Positions 3,896-51,994 of a DNA stretch of 64,000 nt are shown piece by piece. This DNA comes from Candidatus Sungiibacteriota bacterium. Its GTDB lineage: Bacteria; Patescibacteriota; Minisyncoccia; Sungbacterales; HO2-52-23. Each line of letters starts with the position of its first letter. Within the stretch, counting starts at the first letter, position 1. Under the pieces are notes generated by a model. That model had not been told where the DNA came from. It did no database searches and saw only the letters and a program-made list of their open reading frames with translations. Location of the stretch: assembly GCA_016432465.1 (NCBI GenBank), contig CP066690.1:317538-381537 (forward strand), written 5' to 3'. A program made the position numbers and the translations under genes.

Positions 3896-4121
3896 AAAAA
3901 CTTCAATCTACAGTAATCCCTTCGGTCTGCGCGGACGGCTCCTGATAAACTTGGGAGACCGGAAGCAAAGGCGTCCCGACTGGTCGGGGTCTGTGACGCA
4001 GAGAGGCTCCGGCCAACCGGAGAACTCAAAGCAACACAGTTCCTCGCGTCAGCGGGGAAGGGAAAGAAACAGTGGCGCCCCAAGCGCCACTTTATGATTA
4101 CCATTACCTTATATACCAAAA

Positions 4122-5312
4122 TCAGTTTGGAACAGGGGGAGTTTCGTTTTTTTCTTCCTTCAACACCCCAAGAGACATCCTGTGTTCTTGAGGATCAATC
4201 AATAAAATCTTAAACTGGTATTCTTTACCAAGTTCCAGCTCCGATCTCATTTTTATTTCTGTGCCAAACTCGGATATGTGAACTAAACCCTGAATTCCTG
4301 ACTCCAGCTGGGCAAAAGACCCAAAGGGGTTAAATTTGGTTACGCGGGCGCGAACCAAATCTCCTTTTTTATACTTTTCAGCTATTTTCACCCAAGGATC
4401 TTCTTTAAGCTGTTTTAAAGAAAGCGATACTTTATCCCCCTGAATGTCAATAATTTTTGCGCTGACCCTCTCCCCGAGTTTCAAAAACTCGCGCGGGTCT
4501 TCAACCAAAGACCAGTCAATTTCCGATACGTGAATCAGGCCCTCAAGTCCGGCCCCTTCGTCAAACCGCATAAACGCACCGAAGTCAACAACCCCCGTTA
4601 TTTCTCCTTCAACCACGTCTCCGATTTTATACTTAGCCAGGGCCGAACGCGTCCCTTCCAGGTCGCGACCGCGCTCGGTGAAAATTAACTTGTCTTCCGC
4701 CGGACTCAAATCAAGTATTTTTACCGTAAGCTTCTGGCCCACCAACTTTTGCAGTTCCTGAAAGATCCTCTCTTTGTCTCCGCCTTCTACCCGGGGGTAA
4801 TTTTTTGCGGAAAGCTGGGAGGCGGGAAGAAACCCCTTTACGCCGCGGGCCTCAAGTATGAGTCCTCCCTTATTGGCTTCCTGAACAGGCAGTTCTAAAA
4901 CCTCTCCCTGCTCCAGCATTTTTTTAAGATCGCTCCAGTTCTTCTCTGTCCCAGCCTCCTTCAGAGAAAGCTCAACATAGCCGTCTTCATTATCCGGATC
5001 AACTACTTTGACGCTTACTATATCGCCGGGTTTTAAATTTTTTATAATATCCTGCGCCGCATAATACTCGCGTCCGTACACAATGCCGCTACCCTGAAAA
5101 CCAATATCAATAAATAATCTGTTAGTCCGCCTTTCAATCACCGCCCCTTCTATAATATCGCCAGCCTTAAAAAGCCTGCTCCCCCCCACGGTTTTCAAAA
5201 GTAATTCCATGGGGTGTTTGCCGTGTAAAGACGTATCGGCGCTGGTTTTGTTATTATTTCCAGTTATCTCTACCATCTTGGTGAGTATACGGGATAAAAC
5301 TTTACCTAGCAA
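4122..5312 (-). CDS. rpsA: 30S ribosomal protein S1 (four S1 domains)
   Basis: Repeated S1-domain signatures (GDIIEGAVIE..., GDIVSVKVV..., GDVVEGEITGVVDFGAF..., GDLVRARVTKFNPFGSFAQL); exact start uncertain (several in-frame Met). Confidence 0.75.
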   Translation of the reverse strand: MLGKVLSRILTKMVEITGNNNKTSADTSLHGKHPMELLLKTVGGSRLFKAGDIIEGAVIERRTNRLFIDIGFQGSGIVYGREYYAAQDIIKNLKPGDIVSVKVVDPDNEDGYVELSLKEAGTEKNWSDLKKMLEQGEVLELPVQEANKGGLILEARGVKGFLPASQLSAKNYPRVEGGDKERIFQELQKLVGQKLTVKILDLSPAEDKLIFTERGRDLEGTRSALAKYKIGDVVEGEITGVVDFGAFMRFDEGAGLEGLIHVSEIDWSLVEDPREFLKLGERVSAKIIDIQGDKVSLSLKQLKEDPWVKIAEKYKKGDLVRARVTKFNPFGSFAQLESGIQGLVHISEFGTEIKMRSELELGKEYQFKILLIDPQEHRMSLGVLKEEKNETPPVPN

Positions 5313-5354: not shown

Positions 5355-5999
5355 ATGGTTATCACTTGGCTGGGACACTCGTGTTTTAAAATCCAATCAG
5401 GAGAATTTGTTATTGTTACTGATCCCTTTTCTAAAGACATAGGCCTTACCCCGCCCCGTTTCCGGGCGGATATTGTCCTCTCCACCCACGGACATTATGA
5501 TCACTCCAACACCGAAGCCCTTACGGGGGATCCTTTTATTATCAGCGGACCGGGCGAATACGAAGCAAGGGGTGTATACATCCACGGCTTGACAACATTT
5601 CACGATAAAAATCAAGGTAAGGAGCGCGGCACCAACACGATTTATAAAATTTTGGTTGAGGGCATAAACTTGGTGCACTTGGGCGACTTTGGAGAAAAAG
5701 AGTTAAGAAGCACCACCCTTGAAGAAATTGGCGACGCCGATATCCTCATAGTGCCGGTAGGCGGAAAATACACCATAGACGCGGAGGAAGCGGCCAAGGC
5801 GGTAAAACAAATAGAGCCTAAACTGGTAATACCCATGCATTACAAAATTCCGGGCCTGAAAATTACACTTGAAGGCGTGGACGCTTTTTTAAAAGAGCTG
5901 GGTGCGGGAAAAATAGAAGCGCAGGAAAAGCTGGTAATCAAAAAGAAGGACCTGGGTGAGGGGGAAAAAACCAAAGTAGTTTTAATGAAGCCGGCCTGA
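5355..5999 (+). CDS. MBL-fold metal-dependent hydrolase (UPF0173-like)
   Basis: MVITWLGHSCFKIQ... and HGHYDHS (HxHxDH) metallo-beta-lactamase motif. Confidence 0.75.
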   Translation: MVITWLGHSCFKIQSGEFVIVTDPFSKDIGLTPPRFRADIVLSTHGHYDHSNTEALTGDPFIISGPGEYEARGVYIHGLTTFHDKNQGKERGTNTIYKILVEGINLVHLGDFGEKELRSTTLEEIGDADILIVPVGGKYTIDAEEAAKAVKQIEPKLVIPMHYKIPGLKITLEGVDAFLKELGAGKIEAQEKLVIKKKDLGEGEKTKVVLMKPA

Positions 6000-6429: not shown

Positions 6430-9400
6430 ATGAACATAGGCAGAATTCAACAAAGAGAAATAGTGGAGGAGATGCGCGAGTCGTACCTTGACTACGCCAT
6501 GTCGGTCATTGTTGCTCGCGCGCTTCCCGACGTAAGAGACGGCCTGAAACCAGTGCACCGCCGGATTTTGTATTCAATGCATGAACTTGGCCTGACGCAT
6601 TCAGCAAAAACAAGAAAATGCGCAACGATTATCGGAGACGTATTGGGTAAATACCATCCTCATGGCGACGTGGCGGTTTATGATGCGCTGGTGCGCATGG
6701 CGCAAGAATTTTCACTTCGTTATCCCCTCGTTGAGGGGCAGGGAAATTTTGGTTGTTTCACGCAAGATACAAAAGTAAAACTCACCGATGGGCGGGATCT
6801 TTCATTCGGAGAGTTGGCGGAGGAACTCAAGACCGGAAAAAAGAATTATACATACACCGTGAACAGTCTTGGGCTTGTTGGTCTCGCGGAAATAAAACAT
6901 CCGCGTCTTACGAAAAAGAAGGCCCGTGTTATCACCGTTGTTTTAGATAACGGAGAAACAATACGCTGTACGCCCGATCACCGATTTATGATGCGAGATG
7001 GAACATATAAAGAAGCCGGGTCCCTTACGGAACATGACTCGTTGATGCCGCTCTACCAAAAACTATCAACGAAAACAGACAGACTGCAACGGGAAGGATA
7101 CCTATTGGTGTACCAGCCCAAAAAAGACGAATGGGTTCCGGCTCACCACTTGGCTGACAACTATAATCTGACGCGCCATATCTACCAAAAAAATGCCGGC
7201 CGCGTACGGCATCATGTGGACTTTAACAAACTCAACAATAACCCGGACAATGTCAAAAGGCTTGGCTGGGGCGAACATTGGAAAATCCACTATACACATG
7301 CGGCAAAACAACACCAAAAACCGGAATATCGGGAAAAAATCGCGTACGGGCGACGGATGTATTGGGCGGACGAGAAAAACAAAGAACACCACCGAAGCTT
7401 ACTTGCGGAGCGAAATCGCGTTAACTGGCAAAATCCCGAGTACCGAGAACGAATGAAGACATTCCTAAGTCAAGTCAACACCGAATATGTCAAGAAGCAT
7501 CCGGAAAAGAGGAACGAGTTTAGCGAGCGGGCAACACGAACGCTCAAACGCCTGTGGCAAGATCCAGAGTACCGGGCGACGATGCATCAAAAAATCATCA
7601 AAGGGAACAAAAATCATGTCAGCAACAAAACAGGAAAGCTAAAATTTTTAAACATTTGTAAAGAAACACTGAATCGTTTTCAGATACTTGAAGAAAAAGT
7701 ATATGAGCAAGCGCGTAAAGAGGTATATCCATATGGACGGGCGCCTTTATGGAAAACCGGATTGCAAAAATACTTTGCCGGAGATTCAAACCTTGTTCAT
7801 CAGGAATTGTTTAAAAATCACCGAGTTATAAGGATTGAGGACAAAAATGAGTACGAAGACGTTTTTGATCTAACCGTTGACGGAACTCATAATTTTGCGT
7901 TAGCAGCAGGTGTTTTTGTACATAATTCAATTGATGGGGACGCCGCCGCACACTATCGCTATACCGAAGCCCGCATGACCAGAATTGCCGAAGAGCTCCT
8001 GCGCGACATTGAAAAAAATACAGTTGAATTTCGCGACAACTACGATGCCACCCGTAAAGAACCCGTAGTACTTCCTGCGGCTCTTCCCGCTCTCCTGCTT
8101 AACGGAACTCTGGGAATAGCGGTGGGAATGGCAACCAGTATTCCTCCGCATAATCTTGGCGAGGTAACTGCGGCCCTGATCCACTTTAGCGACCACCCCA
8201 AGGCCTCGCTGGAGGATCTAATGGAGTTTATCAAGGGGCCGGACTTCCCCACCGGAGGAATAATTTTTGACGAAAAAGAAATCCGCGCCTCTTACGCATC
8301 GGGCAAGGGGGCCATTTTAAATCGTGGTGTGGCCGAGATTGAAGAGGGCGGCCGCGGAGCGCACCAAATTGTAATCACGGAGATTCCGTATCAGGTAAAC
8401 AAGGCCGAACTAATAGAAACCATGGCCGGTCTCGTGCAGGAAAAGAAAATTGAGGGCATACGAGATATTCGTGACGAATCCGACCGGCAAGGCATGCGCA
8501 TAGTGATTGAACTTAAACAAGATGCGCATCCGCAGAAGGTTTTAAACAATCTTTACCGGCACACTGACCTTGAAAAAACGTTTCACCTAAACATGCTTGC
8601 TTTGGTGGATGGGATTCAGCCGCAGGTACTCTCCATAAAAGAGGTGCTGGAAGAATTTCTGAAGCACCGAAACCAAGTAGTAACCCGCCGCACCAAGTTT
8701 GACCTGACCCGAACCCGCGAGCGCCTGCATATTTTAGAAGGACTGAAAAAGGCGCTGGACCACATTGACCGCGTAATTGAAACTATTAAAAAATCCAGAG
8801 ACCGCGATGAAGCGCGTGAAAATTTAATGAAGAAATTTGCCCTAACGGAGCTGCAGGCCGCCGCAATTCTAGAGATGAAACTGCAGACGCTGGCCGGTCT
8901 TGAACGACAAAAAATAGAGGATGAACTCAAAGAAAAGACGGCACTGGCCAAAAATCTTGAGGCCCTGCTGAAAGATCCTAAGAAAATCACAGATGTTATA
9001 AAAAGGGAATTGCACGAAGTAAGGGAAAAATACGGAGACGAGCGAAAAACTAAAGTCATAAAAACATCCCCCAAAGAACTTTCCGAGGAAGATTTGATTC
9101 CCGCAGAAGAGGTAGTGGTGGTGCTGACTCGCGGCGGTTACATAAAACGGATAAAACCGGAACAATACAAAATGCAGAAGCGCGGCGGTAAGGGGCTTAT
9201 CGGGATGGAGACCAAAGAGGAAGACATGGTGGAACATTTGCTAACCTGCAATACTCACTCCAACCTTCTTTTCTTCACCAGTTCCGGAAAGATTTATCAG
9301 GTTCGGACCTACGAAATTCCGGAAGGAAGTCGTATCTCCAAAGGCAAGGCAATCTTTAACTTTTTGGCGCTTTCCAGCAATGAGCAGATAAACTCCCTTC

Positions 9401-10041
9401 TGGCCACTGCCGGAGCGAAAAAGGGAGAACGCGAGGGTTACATAGTAATGGTGACCAAAGACGGCGTCATCAAAAAGGTTACAGCTTCGGCTTTTGAGAA
9501 CGTCCGCCGCTCAGGACTAATTGCTCTAACCCTAAGGGGCGGCGATCTGCTGCGTTGGGCCAAACTAACGAGCGGCTCTGACGAACTTATACTGGTTACC
9601 AAAAAGGGACAGTCCATAAGATTTGCAGAAAAAGATGTGCGTCCCATGGGACGACAAGCCAGCGGTGTTCGGGCCGTACGTCTGAAAAAAGGTGATGAGG
9701 TGGTGGGTATGGACGTAATCAATAAGGAACAAGTAGCCAACGGTAAATTGCTGGTCATAATGGAGAACGGATTTGGCAAACACACGTTAGTTAAACAATA
9801 CAAAAGGCAACGCAGGGGCGGATCAGGCATAAAAACTGCCAAAATTACTTCCAAAACAGGAAATGTTGTCGGGGCGCGTATCGTGGACAAGGAAGAAACG
9901 GAACTAATCACTATATCCAAAAAAGGTCAGGTTATCCACACTACCCTTGCGGCCATACCCGTGCTCGGCCGCGCCACCCAAGGAGTAAGAATTATGAAAT
10001 TGGAAACAGGAGACGCGGTGGCTTCTATTACTGCGCTGTAA
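6430..10041 (+). CDS. gyrA: DNA gyrase subunit A, interrupted by an in-frame intein
   Basis: N-terminus ...[17 protein letters not shown]...GKYHPHGD...GQGNFG, then C-extein [17 protein letters not shown] (catalytic Tyr region), GyrA box and C-terminal beta-pinwheel repeats; 1203 aa against ~810 aa expected without the insert. Confidence 0.9.
6754..7926 (+). mobile_element. Intein (391 aa) in gyrA carrying an HNH-type homing-endonuclease region and NUMOD-like repeats
   Basis: Starts with Cys right after GNFG (tgt at 6754); block-B TPDH; ends VFVHN (His-Asn) followed by +1 Ser (tca 7927); internal [27 protein letters not shown] (I-HmuI-like HNH) plus three ~30-aa repeats ending NPEYRE(K/R)M / DPEYRATM. 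Confidence 0.8.
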
Positions 10042-10665: not shown

Positions 10666-11943
10666 ATGGCTCGTCCTCTAAATACAGTGCTTGTTGTGGC
10701 CGGACTGGTTGCGGTCATTTTGATTCTGGCTCTGGCGGGAATACTGCCGGGAAGGAAAACCGCCAAGCCCCAGCCCGCTACTTTGGAATTTTGGGGATTG
10801 AAGGACGATGACCTTTTGTGGCGTCCTATTCTGGAAAAATTCAGGAAGGAAAAACCCCACCTTACCGTAAACTATCGGCGTTTTGACGAAATCTCTTACG
10901 AAGAAAACCTTATCAACAAAATGGCCGAGGGCCGCGGTCCGGACATCTTTTTCCTAAAAAACTCATGGGTTGAAAAACATCGCGACAAAATTTTACCCCT
11001 GCCGCAGGAAGTTTTAAAATTTACCGTCAAAGATTTTCAAAAAACTTTTGTAGATGTCGCCTCTCAAGATTTAACCACCAGCGACAATCAAATCCTTGGT
11101 CTGCCCCTTTTTGTGGACACCTTGGCTCTTTTTTATAACAAAGATGTTTTTAACGCCGGGGGCGTGGCCGAAACGCCTAAAACTTGGGGCGAGCTGGAAG
11201 CTGTAGCCAAGAATCTTACCAAAAAAACTGCGGCAGGAGACATCACAAAGTCAGGAGTTGCTCTGGGCGGATCTTCCAACATTGAACACGCGCTTGAGAT
11301 TTTAAGCGCTTTCGTACTGCAGGGGGGTGATAAAATTATAAATCGCGCTAACATGGCGCTGGAACTTGGCGCCCCATCCCGGGAGGCTCTGGATTTTTAT
11401 ACCTCATTTGCCAACGCTAAAAACCCAAACTTTTCCTGGACATTGCGCCAACCTAAGTCTCTGGACGCCTTTTCGCAGGAGCTTACGGCCATGGCCCTTG
11501 GCTTTGCGGATGATCTGCCCAGGGTTAAAGCCAAGAATCCGCATCTTAACTTCGGCGTATCTTTTCTGCCCCAGCGCGCCGATGCCAAAACCTTTGTAAC
11601 TTACGGCAGTTATTTTTTCCCGACCGTATCCCGCCTTTCCAACAATCCGCTTCCTGCTTGGGAGTTTATTCTCTTTGCCGCATCGGCTGATTCTTCAGAA
11701 ATTTATACTAAAAACTCGGGGAAGCCTCCGGCCCGACGCGATCTTCTGGCGAAAAACGCCGCGGCCCTTGAACTGGATATTTTTTATCGTCAGGCCCTTA
11801 CGGCCAAAAGCTGGCCCATTACTGACGAAAAAATAACTCGCCGTCTTTTTGAAGATACGATAGAATCCGTAGTAACCGGGGGAAATACCACAGACACGGC
11901 CTTGAATCGTCTAAGGGAGAAACTTAGTCTTAGTCTGCCATGA
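10666..11943 (+). CDS. ABC transporter extracellular solute-binding protein (family 1, sugar-type)
   Basis: N-terminal membrane anchor, then typical SBP_bac_1-like sequence (WGLKDDDLLWRPILEKF..., LPLFVDTLALFYNKDVF). Confidence 0.6.
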   Translation: MARPLNTVLVVAGLVAVILILALAGILPGRKTAKPQPATLEFWGLKDDDLLWRPILEKFRKEKPHLTVNYRRFDEISYEENLINKMAEGRGPDIFFLKNSWVEKHRDKILPLPQEVLKFTVKDFQKTFVDVASQDLTTSDNQILGLPLFVDTLALFYNKDVFNAGGVAETPKTWGELEAVAKNLTKKTAAGDITKSGVALGGSSNIEHALEILSAFVLQGGDKIINRANMALELGAPSREALDFYTSFANAKNPNFSWTLRQPKSLDAFSQELTAMALGFADDLPRVKAKNPHLNFGVSFLPQRADAKTFVTYGSYFFPTVSRLSNNPLPAWEFILFAASADSSEIYTKNSGKPPARRDLLAKNAAALELDIFYRQALTAKSWPITDEKITRRLFEDTIESVVTGGNTTDTALNRLREKLSLSLP

Positions 11944-12947
11944 AAATTATCCGCTATCGCACGCTTTCTTTTTGGACCGCAACAACTGGTTTGGTTTTAA
12001 TTGCGGCTGTTTTCGCAATACCATTTTTTGTTTCTGCTCAAGGTATAATCCCGCAGTGTCCGGACCGAATTATTGTTGATTCTGCGGGCAAAGAGCTGCA
12101 AAGGATTCCCAACGTCTGTACGGCCTGCGACCTTTTTAACCTTTCTCAAAGTGTACTTAATTTTGTCTGGAGGCTATCTGCGGTAGGGGCTGCCCTGATG
12201 CTTGGTTACGGCGGGTTTTTGATGATTGTGCCGGGAATTGGCGGAGAAAAATCAGCAGCCATGTATGAGAAGGGTAAAAAGGTCCTAACCAACACAGTTA
12301 TTGGCCTTGTGATTATCTTCTTTGCATGGCTGGCCGTAGATACTATAATAAAAGTGTTGGGGGGGAAAATAGCAGCTGGCTTTGGCGAAAATACGGAATA
12401 TCTGGGCGGCGGAGGCTTTGAATTCGGACCATGGAACCGGATTAACTGTTCGCCCCCGGAAACCAGAAAAGTTGTAGCATCGCCCGCAACAAAACCAACA
12501 ACACCTACGCCAGCCCCCATTCCATCCCCCACCACTAGTCCAACCCTAAATCACGCCGAAGCTCTTGGGATTTTTGCTGCTAATCGTATAAAAATTGAAT
12601 CCAAGGGAAACTGTGATGACCGAAACAGCGCCGTCTGTACTTCTCTTGAGGGCCTAAGGAGAACCACCCTCAATCGTGTAGTACTGTTTAAACTGGAATG
12701 TAACTGCGAGGTTACCGTAAGCGGAGGAACAGAGACGGGACACGAAGCAGGACAGTTTAGTCATGCCAGCGGGTATAAGGTTGATATTAAAAGAACAGCA
12801 GCGGTTGACTCCTATATCACCCGTAACTACCGCAACGCAGGAAAACGCAGTGACGGAGCACAAATTTTTGTTGCGCCGGACGGAGCAGAGTTTGCGCGTG
12901 AAAGCAGTCACTGGGACGTAAGGGGGTGGGATGTAACCGTCCGCTAA
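11940..12947 (+). CDS. membrane protein with N-terminal TrbC/VirB2-like pilin domain, Pro/Thr linker and C-terminal Cys-containing domain
   Basis: Signal/TM, then two TM helices in the same arrangement as the small pilin paralogs downstream (LMLGYGGFLMIVPG...VIGLVIIFFAWLAVDTIIKVLGG); PTTPTPAPIPSPTTSPT linker. Confidence 0.55.
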   Translation: MKIIRYRTLSFWTATTGLVLIAAVFAIPFFVSAQGIIPQCPDRIIVDSAGKELQRIPNVCTACDLFNLSQSVLNFVWRLSAVGAALMLGYGGFLMIVPGIGGEKSAAMYEKGKKVLTNTVIGLVIIFFAWLAVDTIIKVLGGKIAAGFGENTEYLGGGGFEFGPWNRINCSPPETRKVVASPATKPTTPTPAPIPSPTTSPTLNHAEALGIFAANRIKIESKGNCDDRNSAVCTSLEGLRRTTLNRVVLFKLECNCEVTVSGGTETGHEAGQFSHASGYKVDIKRTAAVDSYITRNYRNAGKRSDGAQIFVAPDGAEFARESSHWDVRGWDVTVR

Positions 12948-43683: not shown

Positions 43684-43757
43684 CTAATAGCGGATGGCCA
43701 ATGGCCAATAGTGGATATATTTGCCATCAGCTGTCTGTCATTAGCTTAATAAAGACC

Positions 43758-44411
43758 ATGTCTCATTTCAAACACCCATCCACTATTGTCGCCTTTATTT
43801 TGGGGGCACTAATTTTTACAGCGCCGTTGGTGTTTTCCTTTACCGAACCAGGCTCGTCTCCACCCGGCGGAAATGTGCCGGCGCCGTTAAACATAGGCCC
43901 AACAGGCCAGTCCAAGACTGGTGGGCTTATATTAAATACCGGAGGCGCAGCCAACGGCCTTATTATTGATCAAGGAAACGTCGGAATCGGAACTTCCGGT
44001 CCCGGCTACAAACTTCATGTAAAAGGGGGGAACTTTAACGTAGAAAATGGGAAAGTCTTTCAGGGGGGCTCCGAACTTTTACCAGCCGGAGCAGTGCTTT
44101 ATTTTAACCTAACCTCCTGTCCCGGCGGATGGTCTGAACTCACGGCTGCTCGCGGTAGATATATTGTCGGACTTCAACAGGGTGGTTCTCTGGGGACAAC
44201 CGTAGGAACAGCTCTTTCCAACCAAGAAAACCGCGCCACAGGAAAGCATAATCACCAATTAGGGGGCCTTTGGGTAAATCAGGGCAATGGAAACAATCCG
44301 GCAGGCACTGCCAATCCAGAACGATGGGCCCCTTATGAAACTGGTTATGCGGGGGACGTGGATGGAACAAATGCTCCGTATATTCAACTTTTGGCCTGTC
44401 AGAAAAATTAG
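43758..44411 (+). CDS. phage-tail-collar-domain-like secreted/membrane-anchored protein
   Basis: N-terminal TM; C-terminal region LPAGAVLYFNLTSCPGGWSELTAARGRYIVGLQQGG...HNHQ resembles the phage tail collar / MdpB-like domain; start uncertain (43701 or 43758). Confidence 0.45.
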   Translation: MSHFKHPSTIVAFILGALIFTAPLVFSFTEPGSSPPGGNVPAPLNIGPTGQSKTGGLILNTGGAANGLIIDQGNVGIGTSGPGYKLHVKGGNFNVENGKVFQGGSELLPAGAVLYFNLTSCPGGWSELTAARGRYIVGLQQGGSLGTTVGTALSNQENRATGKHNHQLGGLWVNQGNGNNPAGTANPERWAPYETGYAGDVDGTNAPYIQLLACQKN

Positions 44412-44452: not shown

Positions 44453-45322
44453 ATGAAACTACGATTTCACCAACGTATATTTCTTATCGGAATCTTCCTG
44501 ACCTTAGGAGTAGCTGGTATTTTAATTGTCAAAAATTCTGCCGCCAGCGCCAGCGTCTCCGACAACCTATCCGGTTGGGCTTGGAGTGAAAACATCGGCT
44601 GGATTAGTTTTAATTGCTCCAACTCGGGCTCCTGCGGCTCTTCCAATTACGGAGTAAACGTAAAAAATAACGGAGACCTTGAAGGATATGCTTGGTCTGA
44701 AAATATCGGCTGGATAAGTTTTGAGAAGAATGATGTCAAAAACTGCCCCTCTACTCCGTGTAATCCAAAATTCAATAAGGGTCCGGTAACAGTGGAAGGC
44801 TGGGCCAAGGCTCTGGCTGCCGACAACAACGGCTGGGACGGGTGGATTCACCTGAGGGGTTCTAATTATGGAGTTACGGCTAGCGGCTGCAGCTGGGACG
44901 GATATGCGTGGGGCTCTGATGTTTTGGGCTGGATTCATTTCAAAGGAGCAAACTACGGGGTTACGGGTTCGGGAGACGCCTGCGCAGTTGTCTGCAATGA
45001 CACAGTTGATAACGACGGTGATGGTTTTATAGACTATCCTGCTGACGTAGGTTGCTCTTCAACTACTGATATGGATGAGAGAAATCAGTGCACTGATGGT
45101 TTAGACAATGATGCTGATGGAAAAATTGATTTCCCGGCTGATTCCGGATGTACCAGTGCTCAAGATAACGATGAGCTGGACGTAACTCAATGTTCTGACG
45201 GCATTGATAATGACGCTGATGGCAAAATAGACTATCCCAACGATATTGGCTGCGCAACAGTCTCGGACAACGACGAGACAGACCCTCCGGAGCCATTTTT
45301 CAAAGAGGTTCCTCCTGAATAG
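44453..45322 (+). CDS. secreted Cys-rich repeat protein (GWxWSENIGWISF repeats + four CxDGxDNDxDGxIDxPxDxGC repeats)
   Basis: Signal anchor; two WSENIGWISF repeats; four tandem 22-24-aa Asp-rich Cys-bounded repeats (calcium-binding-like); C-terminus PEPFFKEVPPE. Confidence 0.6.
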   Translation: MKLRFHQRIFLIGIFLTLGVAGILIVKNSAASASVSDNLSGWAWSENIGWISFNCSNSGSCGSSNYGVNVKNNGDLEGYAWSENIGWISFEKNDVKNCPSTPCNPKFNKGPVTVEGWAKALAADNNGWDGWIHLRGSNYGVTASGCSWDGYAWGSDVLGWIHFKGANYGVTGSGDACAVVCNDTVDNDGDGFIDYPADVGCSSTTDMDERNQCTDGLDNDADGKIDFPADSGCTSAQDNDELDVTQCSDGIDNDADGKIDYPNDIGCATVSDNDETDPPEPFFKEVPPE

Positions 45323-45458
45323 ACAAAAAGGAAAGAGTAGACAAAATAAGCCATTCCACGGCAATATAATGCCGTGGAATTGCTTTTTGTGTAAAATGGG
45401 TGTATAATATAGATATAAAGACGGAGGCAAAGAAACCCTAAAACGGAGGAAAGAAAAA

Positions 45459-45974
45459 ATGAAGATAGCCGTACTTTTGGGGTTGCTTATTTTCGGAGCC
45501 TTTCAAGAGACACCCGTACCTTTTGTCAACGCCGGCCTTGAGCTCAAGGCCGCGCTCCCAACACACCCCACCATCAGTAATGTCGCCGCATGGCAGAGCG
45601 GCGAAGACATCAACGTCCGATTTGAGTATGCCGACCTCGCCGGCGGGATGGGCCAAGCCGAGTTTTGGGTACAGTGTTTCCAGGTCTGGCAACAAAAAGG
45701 CCTGGAGACACAAACGGTCTGGCCGCTCCTTAGGTTTGTCCTGCCCCAAGATCCACGCCACGACGCTGAACCCAACGGGACGTTTGCGGCCTCCATTCCT
45801 CTCTACTACATCACCCCCAGAGGCGGGTGGACAGGAGAGAGGTTGCGCTGCCGATTCTTCATCTACGGCGCGCGACAGGAGGTCGCTACAAGCGCCAACA
45901 GCAGTCAAACCGTCAGGAACTCCAGCAATATTCTGGAGATAGAACTGACGCCAACGCGGCAGCGTGAGGCATGA
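45459..45974 (+). CDS. secreted hypothetical protein (appears GC-richer than surroundings)
   Basis: RBS GGAGGAAAG then ATG 45459; signal peptide MKIAVLLGLLIFGAFQ; the overlapping minus-strand ORF 45438..45977 is judged spurious. Confidence 0.5.
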   Translation: MKIAVLLGLLIFGAFQETPVPFVNAGLELKAALPTHPTISNVAAWQSGEDINVRFEYADLAGGMGQAEFWVQCFQVWQQKGLETQTVWPLLRFVLPQDPRHDAEPNGTFAASIPLYYITPRGGWTGERLRCRFFIYGARQEVATSANSSQTVRNSSNILEIELTPTRQREA

Positions 45975-46123
45975 CACGTCCTAGATAGACCGAACAGTAG
46001 TTCAGAGCAGGGTAACCACCCCCTGCTCGTTCCTTTTTGTTAGAGACCATGTTTGTAGACTTAGTAGTCTACAACAAAACCACACTGGGCAAAGATTAAA
46101 AGCCGTGGTTTAATGAAAGCATC

Positions 46124-47617
46124 ATGACTTTTGTAAATAAAAAGACGTTACTGGTTCTACTAATTTTAGTGGTGTTGGTAGTATTCATCTATCCGCATCC
46201 GGCTGACGCTTTTTTCCATAAAAGTTTCTTCAAGTTTTTAAAAAAATTGCTTCCAATAATCATTATTGTTGCGGCGGCTGTTGTAGGCGGCATGGCGGTA
46301 TCGGGTATTATCCTTGTTAAGGCTATTGGCACGACAAGTCTTTTGATCGTAGGGACAGCAGTAGCCGTAACCTCGGTGCTGGGTTTGGACTGCGTTCTGC
46401 CCAATGTTGGTACTGACCCCAACTTTGTATGTAAGGGCACCACCGCCGCGCAAAGTTTTCTCGGTGGAGACAGAATTCTTGGATGCGATCCCTCGGCTGG
46501 GAGTACGCTTGGGGTAGATGTCAAAGCAAAAAGTGAAGATGGTCCAGTTGCGCTCACGGAACCGGCATTCTATAACGTGGCCTGGTGCATTAACGGAGTA
46601 AAAGCAGGGTCTATTCAGGATGAAGAAGGTACGGGAAAACAATATGTTGCCTTTGACAATGAAGGTAACAACGCAGTGCTCAGTGAGTGCGGTTGGGGCG
46701 GAAATAGATTTAGCGGAAGAGTGACGTCTTTTTCAGATTTTAATCAGGAACTGGGTGATTCCATAGATAAAGGCGGCGGTAAAAGAGAATACCAGGGAAT
46801 GAAAGTTGGAACATATACCTACACTGTCAACTGCACCCAACCCAAAACCGAAAGCGTGGACCTTGGCGAGGGTCGCATACGAGAATACGTGGTTGGCATT
46901 GAATCTTCTTCAGATACGGTTGTGGTAATAGTAAATCCAAAACAGACTGGCGGAGGCAGTACCGGAGGAGGACAGACAGGCGGCGGACAAACCGGAGGCG
47001 GACAAACTGGGGGTGGGCAACAACAGCAACAACAGCAGCAACAGCAGCAGCAAACACAACCTCAAGCCGGAACCCAATGCAATCCTCCTCGTTGGAATGA
47101 TATAAGAGTGGATGCGTGTCTGGACGAGGAAGGTGGTAAGGCAAACTGTGACAAAAAACAAGAGGCAGCCAATGGATGGTGCAGTATTGCTTGTGGGGGA
47201 GGAGAGGCATTGGGTTTTAACACTTTCTGGGACGATACTGGCCCCGGTACAAAATACGTACCCACTGGCAGAGTATGCCCAACCTGTAATTTCTACTTCA
47301 CCAGTGTTTCTTGCGGCAGACGCGAAGCGACCAAACCGCCACCGCCAGCCCCTGCGGCCATTATGAATTTCCTTGCTGCGCCAAAATCTATTAACCCCGG
47401 AGAATCCACAACTTTGTCTTGGTCTTCAATAAATGCGACTTCCTGCAATATAGATCAAGGAATCGGCCCTGTTGATACCAGAGGTTCTCGCTCTGTAAAC
47501 CCAACCAAAAGTACCACCTATACTCTGACCTGCTCCGGAGAAGGGGGCTCGCATTCTGCCAGCGTTACGGTTGATGTTTCCAAAATACCATTTCAAAAAG
47601 AAGTAGTGCCGGAATGA
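46124..47617 (+). CDS. large Cys-rich surface protein, paralog 1 (N-terminal TMs, Cys-rich domain, GGGQT/poly-Q linker, Cys-rich module, Ig-like C-terminal domain)
   Basis: Two N-terminal TM helices; (TGGGQ)x4 + Q12 low-complexity linker; C-terminal ~190 aa nearly identical to 50253..51674; ends KIPFQKEVVPE. Confidence 0.65.
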   Translation: MTFVNKKTLLVLLILVVLVVFIYPHPADAFFHKSFFKFLKKLLPIIIIVAAAVVGGMAVSGIILVKAIGTTSLLIVGTAVAVTSVLGLDCVLPNVGTDPNFVCKGTTAAQSFLGGDRILGCDPSAGSTLGVDVKAKSEDGPVALTEPAFYNVAWCINGVKAGSIQDEEGTGKQYVAFDNEGNNAVLSECGWGGNRFSGRVTSFSDFNQELGDSIDKGGGKREYQGMKVGTYTYTVNCTQPKTESVDLGEGRIREYVVGIESSSDTVVVIVNPKQTGGGSTGGGQTGGGQTGGGQTGGGQQQQQQQQQQQQTQPQAGTQCNPPRWNDIRVDACLDEEGGKANCDKKQEAANGWCSIACGGGEALGFNTFWDDTGPGTKYVPTGRVCPTCNFYFTSVSCGRREATKPPPPAPAAIMNFLAAPKSINPGESTTLSWSSINATSCNIDQGIGPVDTRGSRSVNPTKSTTYTLTCSGEGGSHSASVTVDVSKIPFQKEVVPE

Positions 47618-47639
47618 AGCTCCGACCAGCAAGCTGGTC

Positions 47640-47716
47640 GGTATTTGGCGAAGGAGAAGTTAAGTTCTAAAAAGTCCCGACCAGTCGGGGCTTTTTAGAA
47701 CTTAACTTCTCCTATC
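47640..47716. terminator. bidirectional terminator (long palindrome)
   Basis: GGAGAAGTTAAGTTCTAAAAAG-TCCCGACCAGTCGGGGC-TTTTTAGAACTTAACTTCTCC, >20-bp outer stem. Confidence 0.65.
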
Positions 47717-49182
47717 AAAACATTAAATTGATTGGCAAAACCAATACTTTCTATGCTGCCATCGGGTGTAAAAATACCCGCAATATCGCGCCTTCCGCTC
47801 ACAATAATCGGGACCCGCAGCCATACTGCCTCAATTCTGCGAAGATTATTTGTTAATGCCAGATAATTTTCTATTCCCAGCGGCACCCAAAGATTGCTTG
47901 AAGTATTTATAATAATATTTGCGCCGCCCCGAACCGCGCGCCGAAGCCGGGTGGGGTCATGAATCTCAAGACAAATAGGAGAGGCAATTTTGAGATTATC
48001 AAACAAAACCGTACCGCCCTTGCCAAAGGAAAATGAGTACTCGGGGTGAAACACGACGTTGTCGCCGTAGCGCGCCGCATTGGCTTGAGACCCCTTCAGA
48101 AACCAACCAAAATAAAACGGTCGCCATGTCCCAAATGGCCAGTACTCGCCGCCTATGGCCAGACTCCGTTTGTGATAAACCGCCTCCAGCTCGCCAGAAG
48201 GAGAAAAAAAGAGGTTTGAGTTATACTTCTTTCCCTGTTCAATTGTGGTTAGATTGGCAACCACGCGCGTCCCTGCCGAGCGCGCCAGCGCGCGATAGGA
48301 CTGGATCAAGCCTCCGTTATTTGTGATATTAAACTTTTGCAATGCTTCCTTATCAACGTCGTTGGTAACATTCACGTCAACAAGCGCCTCCGGCAGCGCC
48401 ACCAAGTCAACTTGACGCGCTGAAAGTTTTTCTTTAAGCGGCGCGAGAAACGCCTCAATGCGCGCGAGAAACTCTGCCTGCTTTTCCGGCGTGATCTCTA
48501 TGTTCCGTAACCCGTCAAATTCAGTGCCCAAGGGGTTTGTAGAAATAGCGGCAATACGAAAACTTCGGGGTAGAACTTCGTAGGCCTTGAGGCGGCTTGC
48601 AAGGGTCGCCGAAGAAATCTGCCATCCCAGCAGCAAAAAACCCACTGCCAGTAAAATAGGAATTAGGGGGCGTGAATGCCGCCGGTAGTAACCGAGGAAA
48701 ATCAACCAATTCACAAGTATCACAAAAAAACCCATACCCAAAAACCCTCCCCACCGCGCCAGACCCAAAAACGGACCTTGGCCCAAAATCGCCCCGGAAT
48801 TTATGGCAAATGAAGGGAAAAACCCACTTGCGGAAGCAAGATAGTCAAAAACGGCCCAAAATAGGGGCAAAGAAAAAATCGCCGCGCGTTCTCCCAAAAA
48901 ACGCCGCGCAACAAAAAATGCCACGGGAAAACCAAGAAATACAATGATGGGTATGCCAAAAACAACCGGGTCAAAAATAAAATAAACCGCACCCAAAGCA
49001 AAAAGGAACCGGTATATCAATGTCCCAAAAATCAGACGCCACAGCCGCCCCTCTTTTAAATAAAAAACAAAAAGTGGCACGGCAAACAAAAACCCCAACC
49101 ACCAGAAATTATACGGCGGCAGAGAAAAAATCTGCAGCGCCGCCGATACTACCACTAAAATAATCCACAGGCGTGCTTTCAT
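47695..49182 (-). CDS. lnt: apolipoprotein N-acyltransferase
   Basis: N-terminal polytopic membrane region followed by a C-N hydrolase domain (..EYWPFG.., ..ASPICLEIHDP.. with catalytic Cys context). Confidence 0.65.
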   Translation of the reverse strand: MKARLWIILVVVSAALQIFSLPPYNFWWLGFLFAVPLFVFYLKEGRLWRLIFGTLIYRFLFALGAVYFIFDPVVFGIPIIVFLGFPVAFFVARRFLGERAAIFSLPLFWAVFDYLASASGFFPSFAINSGAILGQGPFLGLARWGGFLGMGFFVILVNWLIFLGYYRRHSRPLIPILLAVGFLLLGWQISSATLASRLKAYEVLPRSFRIAAISTNPLGTEFDGLRNIEITPEKQAEFLARIEAFLAPLKEKLSARQVDLVALPEALVDVNVTNDVDKEALQKFNITNNGGLIQSYRALARSAGTRVVANLTTIEQGKKYNSNLFFSPSGELEAVYHKRSLAIGGEYWPFGTWRPFYFGWFLKGSQANAARYGDNVVFHPEYSFSFGKGGTVLFDNLKIASPICLEIHDPTRLRRAVRGGANIIINTSSNLWVPLGIENYLALTNNLRRIEAVWLRVPIIVSGRRDIAGIFTPDGSIESIGFANQFNVLIGEVKF

Positions 49183-49211
49183 CTTTTCTTTTAGTATACT
49201 ACGATTAAAAA

Positions 49212-49661
49212 ATGGAACCGACTCCTCCTATAATAAAAATCATATTTAAGATTTTGGCGCTTGCTATACTCATAGTCGCTGCGCTTTCTTTTATCGGCCT
49301 ATGGCTTCAGGTATTTTCCGCCAGAGCCGACTTTTGGTATATAATCCGTGCCGCAACTTTAGTTCTTCTTAACCTTGTGGGGTTTTACGGATTTTGGAAT
49401 ATGCGGACTTGGCTTGTGTCCATCCTTCTCCTAAACCTTATCAACATGGCGGTAAGCCAAGCCCTTGGCCTCGGCTCCTTCTCAACAGTAACTCTTTTGG
49501 TGGTGGTAGGCATTTTTGTCTTGGTGGCGCTGCTCCGCAGACACCTTAGCGGAAGGTACGAAGAGCCCCTGCCGCTTATTCTTTTTATCGGAGGCGCTCT
49601 CTTGAGCCATATCGCGGCTCGCTTTATAACCTCTGGTGCTGTTGACTTTTTCGTGAAATAG
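49212..49661 (+). CDS. hypothetical integral membrane protein
   Basis: 149-aa ORF with 4 predicted TM helices. Confidence 0.5.
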   Translation: MEPTPPIIKIIFKILALAILIVAALSFIGLWLQVFSARADFWYIIRAATLVLLNLVGFYGFWNMRTWLVSILLLNLINMAVSQALGLGSFSTVTLLVVVGIFVLVALLRRHLSGRYEEPLPLILFIGGALLSHIAARFITSGAVDFFVK

Positions 49662-49720
49662 GGGTATAATTAGAGTATAGTAAACCCCAAAAAGCCAGAA
49701 AACCAGAAAAGGAGGCAGAA

Positions 49721-50206
49721 ATGAAAAACAGGGGGTTCGCTCTTTTCACACTAGTTGCGGTGGCCCTCGTTTTTGGGGGCTGCGCAGTCGTCAATACCAG
49801 CGTAAGACCGAGTGCCCCGTTCCTCAACATCGACGGCTTCAATGCCGTCGAAATCAAGGGCAAGATCACGGACAAACAACGGGTCGAGGAGCTGAAGAAG
49901 TTCCTCGACGCCAAGATTGGGGGACTGGGCGAAGGGTCTGCTTCCCTCCTCATAGATTTCACCGTCTATGATGAGGGGGACGACCTCACACGCAGGATGC
50001 TTGGCTTTGGGGCGGGGAAGGTCCGCTTCGGAGCACAGGTGTCGATTCTGAAGAACGGACAGGCCGTATTTACGTGGCCTGTCTGGATAGATTCCAGCAT
50101 CACCGCTCACATCACGGTGGGCGGAATGCTGGAGAGGTTCGCCGAGAAGGTTGCGGCGGACCTTGCATCCATTCTTCGTAAGACCCCCCAGCCCTCAACG
50201 GGTTAG
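49721..50206 (+). CDS. putative lipoprotein (appears GC-richer than surroundings)
   Basis: TATAAT at 49667; RBS AAAGGAGGCAG; signal + lipobox-like LVFGGC. Confidence 0.5.
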   Translation: MKNRGFALFTLVAVALVFGGCAVVNTSVRPSAPFLNIDGFNAVEIKGKITDKQRVEELKKFLDAKIGGLGEGSASLLIDFTVYDEGDDLTRRMLGFGAGKVRFGAQVSILKNGQAVFTWPVWIDSSITAHITVGGMLERFAEKVAADLASILRKTPQPSTG

Positions 50207-50252
50207 GGGGTTTTATATTGTTTTAGTACTAAGAAAACATTATTATAAATTT

Positions 50253-51674
50253 GTGGACCAGAGACTTCGCACAAACACAAAGGATAACAAAGTAGCATGG
50301 AGACTACTGATCGTTTTTTTACTTATATCTTTATTACTGCCGTCCGCAACCTATGCGGCCATACTCCCATTTCCAATTATAATCGCCCTCATTGCGGCCA
50401 CCGGAATTGCCGTGACGATTGACTACGCCACCTGCGTCGTAAATGTCGTCTGGGGCGGATGCGGCAACGGCGGTAAGAGTTTTGAAGGAGAACGGGGGAT
50501 TGGTTGTGATCCTCGTTCCGATACGCTCGGCGTTGACGTGAAAGCTAATAATTCCGATGCGCCGGAACCTTTTAATGAACCGGCATTTTATAACATTAAC
50601 TTTTGTATAAAGGGCCCGTGGGCGGAATACACGGAAGGCGGGCAGAGTTTTAACACCAATAGAATGCAGTGCGGATGGAGCGGCAATAGATTTGGCAGCG
50701 AAGAGACCAGAAACTCCGGCAGCTTTCGGGAGTGGGGGGAATGGGGCGGTCCCGGAGGCTCAATTCCTCAAGGCATGAAAGCGGGAACCTATACTTATAC
50801 CCTTTCCTGCACAGGAGCATCCAAAGATCTTGAAGGAGGAGGACCAGAGCAGTCAGCTTCGGACACGGTGGTGGTCAATGTAACCGCAAAAACTACATGC
50901 GTTGCCGATACCTGGAGTTGTGGAGACTGGAGCTCTTGTTCAAACGGCAACCAAACCCGTTCGTGTAATAAAACCTTTGATTGTTCGTCAACAGACACTC
51001 CTTCGCCGCCAACTAGTCAGTCCTGTACAATCAGCAGTGAAACTGATGGGGGTAAAAAGGACGATGGAAGTAAAAAAGATGATGGAAGTAAAAAGGACGA
51101 CGGACAACAGCAACAACAACAGCAGCAAACACAACCCCAAGCCGGAACCCAGTGTAATCCTCCTCGTTGGAATGATATAAGAGTGGATGCGTGTCTGGAC
51201 GAGGAAGGTGGTAAAGCAAACTGCGATAAAAAACAAGAGGCAGCCAATGGGTGGTGCAGTATTGCTTGTGGGGGAGGAGAGGCATTGGGTTTTAACACTT
51301 TCTGGGATACTAGTGGTCCCGGTACTAAATACGTTCCTACGGGCAGAGTATGCCCAACTTGTAGTTTCTACTTCACCAGTGTTTCTTGCGGCAGACGCCG
51401 ACCACCTCCGGCAGCCATTATGAGCTTTATTGCCTCACCCCGCTCCATCAATCCCGGAGAGTCAACCACTCTTTCTTGGTCCTCATTAAACGCCACCTCT
51501 TGTAACCTTAATCAGGGCATTGGTTCGGTTTCCACCAGCGGTTCTCGCTCTGTAAACCCAACCAAAAGTACCACCTATACTCTGACCTGCTCCGGAGAAG
51601 GGGGCTCGCATTCTGCCAGCGTTACGGTTGATGTTTCCAAAATACCATTTCAAAAAGAAGTAGTGCCGGAATGA
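50253..51674 (+). CDS. large Cys-rich surface protein, paralog 2
   Basis: Same architecture as 46124..47617; (DGGKKD/DGSKKD)x3 + Q8 linker; C-terminal module near-identical at nucleotide level; the track ORF begins at ATG 50151 overlapping the upstream gene, an in-frame GTG at 50253 is an alternative start; start unresolved. Confidence 0.55.
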   Translation: MDQRLRTNTKDNKVAWRLLIVFLLISLLLPSATYAAILPFPIIIALIAATGIAVTIDYATCVVNVVWGGCGNGGKSFEGERGIGCDPRSDTLGVDVKANNSDAPEPFNEPAFYNINFCIKGPWAEYTEGGQSFNTNRMQCGWSGNRFGSEETRNSGSFREWGEWGGPGGSIPQGMKAGTYTYTLSCTGASKDLEGGGPEQSASDTVVVNVTAKTTCVADTWSCGDWSSCSNGNQTRSCNKTFDCSSTDTPSPPTSQSCTISSETDGGKKDDGSKKDDGSKKDDGQQQQQQQQTQPQAGTQCNPPRWNDIRVDACLDEEGGKANCDKKQEAANGWCSIACGGGEALGFNTFWDTSGPGTKYVPTGRVCPTCSFYFTSVSCGRRRPPPAAIMSFIASPRSINPGESTTLSWSSLNATSCNLNQGIGSVSTSGSRSVNPTKSTTYTLTCSGEGGSHSASVTVDVSKIPFQKEVVPE

Positions 51675-51699
51675 ATTCTAAAAAGTCCCGACTGGTCGG

Positions 51700-51990
51700 G
51701 ACTTTTTAGATTACCTTAAGAAAACTAAATTTTCTTCTAAGAGTGTGAACGGAGAGCGCGGTCGAAGCTATTTGGGTTTCCAGACAGTGGGAGGCGAAGT
51801 TTGCTTGGCCCGCCGAAGGCGGAAACTTCGCCGACCCTTAGTGAGGTCGCCGTCCCTAGGCGGCGAAGCCGCCGGTGGCTAGGCTCTTAAAGCCGCCATC
51901 CCGGCTAATGCCTAGGGAGATGCCGGCCTGAAGGGCCTAGGCACTGGACGACCGAATCGTGTCTGGAACCTAAATAGCTGAGGGAACCGC
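51700..51990. ncRNA. GC-rich, highly structured noncoding region (candidate ncRNA, family not identified)
   Basis: ~290 nt between convergent genes with many nested palindromes (GGCGGC-GAA-GCCGCC, CCTAGG...CTAGG, GCCGGCC..GGGCC) and no plausible ORF. Confidence 0.3.
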
Positions 51991-51994
51991 GCGA

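Follow-up and report, generated by a model that had tools for sequence, protein, structure and literature searches.

Within a 64,000-nucleotide stretch of the genome of a Candidatus Sungiibacteriota bacterium (contig CP066690.1, positions 317,538 to 381,537, here referred to as the window and numbered from its first letter), two paralogous genes encoding putative surface proteins share a module at their 3' ends that displays a mosaic of abruptly changing sequence identity. The distribution of the differences between both copies suggests that this mosaic has probably arisen from two or more gene conversions with short tracts and different ages, which took place between old paralogs arranged as direct repeats, combined with purifying selection on a cysteine-rich domain. 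The mechanism of conversion is ordinary and already familiar; here it acts on a C-terminal unit of many surface proteins of the Candidate Phyla Radiation (CPR).

A mosaic module at the 3' ends of two paralogs

Both genes are found on the forward strand as direct repeats with a spacing of 4.07 kb. The open reading frame (ORF) of the second gene begins with a TTG located within the upstream gene, but a likelier start is the GTG at 50253, immediately ahead of a signal-peptide-like segment. The two proteins are built on a shared plan comprising, from N- to C-terminus, a signal or transmembrane region, a β-rich N-domain, a tandem-repeat linker, a polyglutamine run, a domain with eight cysteines (8-Cys domain), a proline-rich hinge, an immunoglobulin (Ig)-like domain with two cysteines and a ten-residue tail. 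Their features are as follows:

46124-47617, + strand: paralog 1, 497 amino acids, from its ORF and translation
46124-46402, + strand: hydrophobic N-terminus of paralog 1 (residues 1-93), from a Kyte-Doolittle scan
46421-46951, + strand: N-domain of paralog 1, homologous to 50445-50897 in paralog 2
46942-47053, + strand: linker and CAA/CAG run of paralog 1, from Tandem Repeats Finder (TRF) and alignment
47029-47618, + strand: shared module, copy 1, from a repeat finder and alignment
47029-47323, + strand: stratum 1, polyglutamine run and 8-Cys domain, 20 differences in 295 nt, 93% identical to 51104-51398
47324-47341, + strand: 18-nt indel encoding EATKPP in the proline-rich hinge, present in paralog 1 only
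47343-47482, + strand: stratum 2, hinge and 5' half of the Ig-like domain, 46 differences in 140 nt, 67% identity
47483-47618, + strand: stratum 3, 3' half of the Ig-like domain, tail, stop codon and one further base, no difference in 136 nt compared to 51540-51675
47585-47614, + strand (copy 2: 51642-51671): tail IPFQKEVVPE, a variant of the Patescibacteria motif P-x-[FWY]-x-E-[IVF]-x-P-x
50253-51674, + strand: paralog 2 from its likely GTG start, with the ORF opening at TTG 50151
50898-51026, + strand: extra cysteine-rich insert with W-x-x-W-S-x-C, present in paralog 2 only
51052-51104, + strand: linker of paralog 2, three 18-nt units encoding DG[G/S]KKD (TRF)
51104-51675, + strand: shared module, copy 2, from a repeat finder and alignment

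The N-terminal halves of the two proteins have diverged, as had been stated in an earlier note on this DNA. The N-domains share between 34% (tblastn) and 47% (MAFFT) protein identity, with a proportion of synonymous differences (pS) of 0.79 and a non-synonymous divergence (dN) of 0.46 in Nei-Gojobori counts, and the DNA upstream of the CAA/CAG run is unalignable between the copies in a global alignment. Judged from these counts, the halves are those of old divergent paralogs with saturated synonymous divergence (dS), and we found no evidence for their active variation. They are followed by linkers of different sequence, five TGGG[S/Q] units and 12 glutamines in paralog 1 (15-nt units at 46942-47010, counted as four by TRF, and a CAA/CAG run at 47017-47053) and three DG[G/S]KKD units and eight glutamines in paralog 2. 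The linkers and peptide strings quoted in the earlier note agree with the ORF translations and the alignment of the paralogs. At the DNA level, the linker regions upstream of the module (46942-47053 and 51052-51135) consist of tandem repeats and CAA/CAG runs that are likely prone to slippage, and an independent contig that ends inside the CAA/CAG run at position 47046 might reflect length heterogeneity in the population.

The shared module shows an overall identity of 86.4% across 590 aligned columns and is reported by the repeat finder as two blocks, 47029-47323 versus 51104-51398 at 93% and 47345-47618 versus 51402-51675 at 84%. In the window, no part of the module occurs a third time. The module had previously been described as near-identical throughout, and while its existence is borne out, its identity is not uniform but passes from 93% through an indel and a segment of 67% to 100%. 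Pairwise alignment, which the earlier note had suggested for locating the breakpoints, places the 5' edge of the homology within the run of CAA and CAG codons (CAR run) and the internal breaks at 47323/47343 and 47482/47483. The perfectly identical part comprises 136 nt (47483-47618) rather than the approximately 150 nt assumed initially.

The 66 differences in the module are very unevenly distributed. In stratum 1, 16 of them are synonymous and four non-synonymous (pS 0.26 for 47030-47323, dS about 0.32, dN 0.017, dN/dS about 0.05), with no replacement in the first 68 codons. In stratum 2, synonymous sites are saturated to the same extent as in the N-domain (pS 0.78 for 47342-47491, dN 0.15), and in the adjoining codons at 47492-47614 Nei-Gojobori counts find no difference at all. 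When the 66 differences were permuted 20,000 times over 572 sites, a clean run of 136 nt was never reached, nor was it in another 20,000 permutations restricted to the Ig-like part. Third codon positions account for 16 of the 20 changes in stratum 1 and for 32 of the 46 in stratum 2, with no bias towards adenine. Since the differences are found mainly in third positions and lack this bias, they represent ordinary neutral change constrained by purifying selection rather than the outcome of DGR-type (diversity-generating retroelement) or other targeted mutagenesis.

Both copies are real, as can be seen in independent assemblies from six sequencing runs. Logan contigs were retrieved by exact matching of proteins encoded nearby, and those from SRR12113384, SRR12113385, SRR12113424, SRR12113428, SRR12113430 and SRR12113431 agree with the window at 100% identity. 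These run numbers are close to SRR12113421, which a preprint lists as a groundwater metagenome from Modesto, California (He et al. 2021), and judged by the adjacency of the accessions alone, the uncultured bacterium may come from groundwater as well. The gene-pair region is covered in SRR12113384, SRR12113385, SRR12113428 and SRR12113430, and the side towards RNase Y in SRR12113424, SRR12113430 and SRR12113431. One of the contigs (L002) spans 44748-47046 and breaks off where the module begins, within the CAA/CAG run. A second one, recovered in four samples, spans 47589-51185, thus including the final 30 nt of the identical tract and stopping 30 nt into the 59-nt segment 51156-51214, which is the first stretch of at least 31 identical nucleotides. 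From these overhangs of 30 nt we deduce a k-mer length (k) of 31, and the contig ends show the behaviour expected from a k = 31 de Bruijn graph that branches at a genuine two-copy repeat. They therefore independently confirm the junction of the identical tract into the private downstream region of gene 1 and the adjacent lnt gene as well as the entry of gene 2 into the module, and the concern that the repeat edges might be an artefact of assembly is resolved by independent contigs breaking at these sites.

Probable gene conversion and its alternatives

The observations that bear on the origin of the module are a mosaic with sharp breakpoints exceeding chance expectation, a homogenisation that is seen at synonymous sites (with pS values of 0.79, 0.26, 0.78 and 0 along the gene) and that is thus not explained by selection at the protein level, and the presence of two real copies with distinct flanks in one genome. 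From this pattern we infer conversion as the underlying process and also the number and order of its events. The maintenance of the module by gene conversion or recombination had already been proposed in the earlier note, and the proposal gains strength from the three synonymous strata, the sharp breakpoints and the extreme tract without differences.

In the sequence of events that we consider, an ancient duplication would have yielded the two paralogs, its age being indicated by synonymous sites that are saturated both in the N-domain and in the first half of the Ig-like domain. Non-reciprocal homologous recombination, that is gene conversion, would then have replaced parts of the 3' module in at least two events, the older of which left a tract extending from the CAA/CAG run through the cysteine-rich domain. 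This tract would afterwards have accumulated almost only synonymous changes, with strong purifying selection presumably acting on the domain. A second, very recent tract of 136 nt would have included the other half of the Ig-like domain together with the tail and the stop codon. Stratum 2, with the hinge and the first half of the Ig-like domain, appears not to have been converted.

The closest described parallel is found in the gene pairs babA/babB and homA/homB of Helicobacter pylori, whose 3' segments evolve in concert (Pride and Blaser 2002, as summarised in PMC3960876). As in the window, these are surface-protein paralogs of one genome that diverge in their 5' and middle parts and are kept alike at their 3' ends, which is there ascribed to intragenomic conversion of the RecA type. 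The systems differ in several respects. In H. pylori the homogenised part forms the β-barrel that serves as membrane anchor, whereas the module in the window contains no membrane segment, and chimeras in H. pylori switch the expression of adhesins, whereas no chimeric or switching forms were seen for the pair described here. Moreover, concerted evolution in H. pylori was derived from many strains, whereas our data describe short tracts of different ages in a single population.

Several points speak against our interpretation. No orthologues of the paralogs were found in searches covering 5.8 billion proteins, GTDB genomes and JGI metagenomes, so that the question of whether the genes cluster by genome or by orthologue provides no evidence on conversion. 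The interiors of the two modules (47047-47588 and 51186-51675) are covered by none of the independent contigs retrieved. Concerning the tail, the paralogs carry a glutamine at the position of the aromatic residue in the Patescibacteria motif and a phenylalanine one position earlier, which makes the equivalence to that motif uncertain. Finally, the older stratum could also have arisen if the whole module had been transplanted once and the first half of the Ig-like domain had then been replaced by that of a third donor not seen here.

This last scenario, in which the module was copied once between the paralogs, or acquired by both, through recombination at the CAA/CAG run and in which a diverged Ig-like domain from elsewhere in the genome or foreign DNA later overwrote the 5' half of the Ig-like domain, appears improbable, but is the strongest among the alternatives. 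It would account for a 5' edge of homology that falls into a low-complexity CAR run between unrelated tandem-repeat linkers, and donors are plausible since Ig-like domains are extremely common (17,176 representative proteins), often occur in tandem arrays and are also part of phage structural proteins (phrog_2155). However, the window does not contain a third copy, and the 5' halves of the two Ig-like domains run collinearly and in frame, with an identity of 67% and a signature of purifying selection, as would be expected of original paralogous sequence. The scenario is also not simpler, as the 136-nt tract still requires a separate recent event.

It is considerably less probable that the 136 nt have remained invariant without recombination through a constraint at the nucleotide level, such as a small RNA derived from the 3' end, a regulatory site or an antisense feature. 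The identity does reach exactly to the stop codon and one further base, and a related terminator follows both genes. Yet the tract shows no excess of RNA structure, with a folding energy no better than that of shuffled sequences (z = +0.38), and no match in Rfam, and the complete lack of change in about 31 synonymous sites that adjoin saturated ones is atypical of constraint. An assembly artefact, be it a collapsed, duplicated or chimeric join, has an even smaller chance of being correct. Although the length of the identical tract approximates that of one short read, the copies can be told apart by 66 differing positions, an 18-nt indel and different flanks, and independent contigs from several runs reproduce the left flank of gene 1, the lnt junction and the entry of gene 2 into the module.

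Programmed variation of the Ig-like domain by a DGR or by switching between an expression site and silent cassettes can practically be dismissed: although DGRs are common in CPR and the variable segment 47343-47482 next to an invariant 3' stretch superficially resembles the arrangement of a variable region and its initiation of mutagenic homology site (VR/IMH), the substitutions are mostly synonymous third-position changes without adenine bias, none of the ORFs searched with Pfam matched a reverse transcriptase, and just two copies exist, both being complete genes with their own starts and terminators. We thus rejected a classification of the locus as DGR target on its substitution spectrum (no adenine bias, 32 of 46 changes in third positions), and one as cassette for antigenic or phase variation in light of the full-length ORFs with own starts and terminators, the presence of two copies in 64 kb and the fact that the exchanged part is the conserved 3' end.

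The C-terminal Ig-like unit and its tail

The tail of the paralogs has a counterpart in a neighbouring gene:

44453-45322, + strand: surface protein with GW repeats or acidic double-disulfide repeats, ending in PFFKEVPPE (45293-45319)

This ending has seven of nine residues in common with PFQKEVVPE of the paralogs, so that three genes in the window end alike. We surveyed the tail in the best 120 Patescibacteria homologues of the GW-repeat protein (P0157-P0276). In 62 of them, the C-terminus reads P-x-[FWY]-x-E-[IVFLT], either without further residues or extended by x-P or x-P-x. Among 150 Ig-repeat proteins taken from all phyla as controls, only one shows the same pattern. If the pattern is relaxed at the aromatic position, phenylalanine, tryptophan or tyrosine still occupies it in 53 of 63 family tails (84%), and P0243 ends in a similarly shifted variant (PFLREVIP) as the paralogs. 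The domains preceding the motif differ and include acidic disulfide repeats, Ig-like, PKD and CARDB domains.

The homology to other Patescibacteria proteins extends beyond the tail. The terminal Ig-like domain and tail of the paralogs align to the very last residue of P0177 (262-348 of 348), P0230, P0167 (181-268 of 268) and P0189 (277-359 of 359) with 52-58% identity and E-values from 1e-25 to 1e-29, and the internal Ig copies in these four proteins are weaker matches than the terminal ones. In view of this alignment to the last residue, the Ig-like domain and tail together constitute a lineage-wide terminal unit of Patescibacteria surface proteins, which is defined here and does not correspond to a curated family.

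The Ig-like domain itself (residues 411-486 of paralog 1, approximately) is widespread. It shows 55% identity to the Ig-like module of Pal-type lipoproteins from other phyla and to P0001, and it matches 17,176 representative proteins at E <= 1e-3, as well as the phage structural family phrog_2155, and no Pfam model covers it. Paralog 1 matches a widespread bacterial Ig-like repeat with the consensus INPG-S-TL-W...NA..C...G...GS..V.P...T.YTLTC.G.GG, which is found in Pal/OmpA lipoproteins and giant surface proteins. Compared to this repeat, the window contains a single terminal copy of a Patescibacteria-specific subtype (IDQGIG.V.T.GS) that is followed by the tail.

The tail shares features with the tripartite C-terminal signals of other systems, such as those of LPXTG/sortase, PEP-CTERM/exosortase, PGF-/PEF-CTERM/archaeosortase and GlyGly-CTERM/rhombosortase (overview in bioRxiv 10.1101/2023.06.07.544157). 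In both cases, a short conserved motif is placed at the extreme C-terminus of otherwise unrelated surface or secreted proteins of one lineage. Conversely, the tripartite signals consist of a motif, a transmembrane helix and a basic tail, whereas the Patescibacteria tail ends zero to three residues past the motif and contains no hydrophobic segment. A hydrophobic helix after the motif is absent in the GW-family hits with one exception among 120 (P0273), and in the paralogs, where ...KIPFQKEVVPE is followed by the stop codon and the chain terminates 4-6 residues past the tail motif, no hydrophobic segment is found after residue 93. An assignment to a known C-terminal sorting signal (LPXTG, PEP-CTERM, PGF/PEF-CTERM or GlyGly-CTERM) was rejected, given the missing helix and the lack of NCBIfam and Pfam matches; neither these databases nor any known sorting-signal model contain a match to the tail. 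A literature search for a C-terminal motif of Patescibacteria retrieved nothing relevant, which is not proof of absence, and an AlphaFold2 model of the tail is of low confidence (predicted local distance difference test, pLDDT, 41-50).

The hydropathy scan identified three hydrophobic segments in the N-terminus of paralog 1, the first being signal-like, and one signal-like and one further hydrophobic segment in that of paralog 2. Residues 1-93 are thus the sole candidate membrane anchor of paralog 1. The earlier note had regarded the genes as a design with variable surface and constant anchor, of which the constancy is retained, with the terminal unit being shared with other Patescibacteria, and the anchor is left unsupported as no hydrophobic helix follows the tail and all predicted hydrophobic segments reside in the diverged N-termini. 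If anything, the layout would be one of a variable membrane-proximal and a constant distal part. The homogenised part may be a functionally constrained, exposed end of the protein. With low confidence, we consider the tail as a short tag for recognition, docking or processing and not as a membrane anchor, which might be recognised by a partner at the surface or by a processing enzyme. A more far-reaching interpretation remains tentative, where the Ig-like domain and tail would act as an undescribed, helix-less tag for sorting, docking or processing that is re-homogenised by conversion while the rest of the protein, with its two orphan domains (the N-domain and the 8-Cys domain), diverges.

Neither paralog is assigned to a family in Pfam or NCBIfam, and an exact-sequence look-up of paralog 1 returned no match, with public assemblies fragmenting the gene at the repeat. 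Relatives of the N-domain and the cysteine-rich domain were not found in a word-indexed search of 5.8 billion proteins, in back-translated scans of GTDB genomes and JGI metagenomes, or in Pfam (even at E <= 10), NCBIfam and PDB sequences. A phmmer search with the whole 186-residue module is uninformative on the cysteine-rich domain, as the best 150 of its 17,176 matches all concern the Ig part. We detected no kinship between the N-domain and the Ig-like repeat using hhalign (probability of 15%, with the TYTYT-C strand alone being aligned), and AlphaFold2 models obtained without a deep alignment are unreliable, with a pLDDT of about 30 for the cysteine-rich domain and a mean of 40 for the N-domain. 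Two candidate relationships were rejected. A TrbC/VirB2 or T4SS_pilin N-terminus (PF04956, PF18895) is matched in paralog 1 by TrbC only at E = 1.8 and in paralog 2 not at all, and a likeness in motif to thrombospondin type-1 repeats (CSxxCGxG; WSxxxWSSCS...QTRSC) finds no match to Pfam TSP_1 even at E <= 10.

Genomic setting and implications

The two copies of the module enclose three genes and are followed by related terminators:

47620-47645: private hairpin of gene 1, located before the shared hairpin
47652-47713: near-perfect palindrome with 30-nt arms, a bidirectional terminator
47695-49182, - strand: lnt, apolipoprotein N-acyltransferase (Pfam), between the direct repeats
49212-49661, + strand: membrane protein of 149 amino acids, between the direct repeats
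49721-50206, + strand: DUF4410 lipoprotein-like gene (Pfam), between the direct repeats
51676-51710: terminator hairpin of gene 2, at the site of the bidirectional terminator of a syntenic relative (L001)

The set of lnt, membrane protein and DUF4410 gene is also found on the Logan contigs. The terminators, which had been taken as identical, are merely similar. The hairpin at 47665-47699 is identical to 51676-51710 at 32 of 35 positions in direct orientation, and the latter matches the reverse complement of 47666-47700 at 34 of 35 positions, so that the two hairpins bracket the region from lnt through gene 2 as inverted repeats. In copy 1, the shared hairpin is displaced from the stop codon by 46 extra nucleotides, which include the private hairpin. 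The lnt gene terminates within the 3' arm of the palindrome, which holds its last five codons together with the stop, and the mirror arm consequently also reads GEVKF-stop on the + strand.

A syntenic contig of assembly GCA_964412615.1 (L001), with a DNA identity of 64-77%, does not contain either paralog. It shows the order HU, lnt (+ strand), proteins of 95 and 255 amino acids, the GW protein, a protein of 201 amino acids, terminator, RNase Y (- strand) and iPGM. Compared to the lnt of this contig (2368-3600), that of the window (47695-49182) is inverted and relocated and is found between the paralogs. The paralog pair is therefore lineage-specific and part of a rearranged island of surface proteins. 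The relative contains a pair of surface-protein genes of its own that flanks the GW gene and shares a 300-nt 5' module (3933-4232 and 5541-5840) with 96% identity and differing 3' parts, a mirror image of the shared 3' module in the window, so that homogenised modules recur in this gene cluster.

The same island encodes small secreted proteins with glycine-rich repeats, at 43701-44411 in the window and at 3881-4648 and 5552-6157 in the relative. They have a common N-terminus, in which a hydrophobic helix is followed by FTEP-x-S/G-S-PP-x-x-NVP, with a weak match to the tail-fibre-like phrog_9942 (E = 0.005). Between the terminator of gene 2 and the 3' end of RNase Y, an intergenic element of about 240 nt (51745-51992) stands out by its GC content of about 60%, compared to 46% in the window. 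It is predicted to adopt a multi-branched fold closed by a stem of about 25 bp, with a minimum free energy of -137.5 kcal/mol (z = -6.6) on the + strand and -129.6 kcal/mol (z = -8.2) on the - strand. The element has no match in Rfam and is absent from the relative, and three independent Logan contigs all break inside it at 51892.

The window is chromosomal DNA of a bacterium of the Patescibacteria, belonging to the Parcubacteria-type CPR. It contains the housekeeping genes gyrA (with an intein), IMPDH, Lon and L10 identified by Pfam, those of RNase Y, iPGM, ClpP, trigger factor, H+-PPase and NusA assigned by synteny with annotated genes of the relative, and six tRNAs. The homologues of the GW-repeat gene at 44453-45322 belong to named Patescibacteria (Giovannonibacteria, Niyogibacteria, Kaiserbacteria and Minisyncoccota). 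The intein of gyrA (6430-10041) is located at about 6784-7926, with Pfam Intein_splicing matching residues 119-499 of the 1203-residue GyrA. A gene at 11940-12947 encodes a protein of 335 amino acids with a significant T4SS_pilin (PF18895) N-terminal domain, a proline/threonine-rich linker and an uncharacterised C-terminal domain.

CPR bacteria are thought to live attached to host cells, and to our knowledge their surface proteins are almost entirely uncharacterised. The locus suggests that ordinary gene conversion of the RecA type acts on surface-protein paralogs even in small CPR genomes, and it would mark the part of the protein that the cell keeps constant. The terminal tag and the two orphan domains are more noteworthy than the conversion itself, and the more useful lead is the undescribed C-terminal unit, an Ig-like domain with a short acidic/aromatic tail that lacks a membrane helix, which is common to many otherwise unrelated Patescibacteria surface proteins. 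If this unit were a sorting or docking tag, it would offer a sequence handle for predicting the surface proteome of CPR bacteria and for finding the machinery that recognises it.

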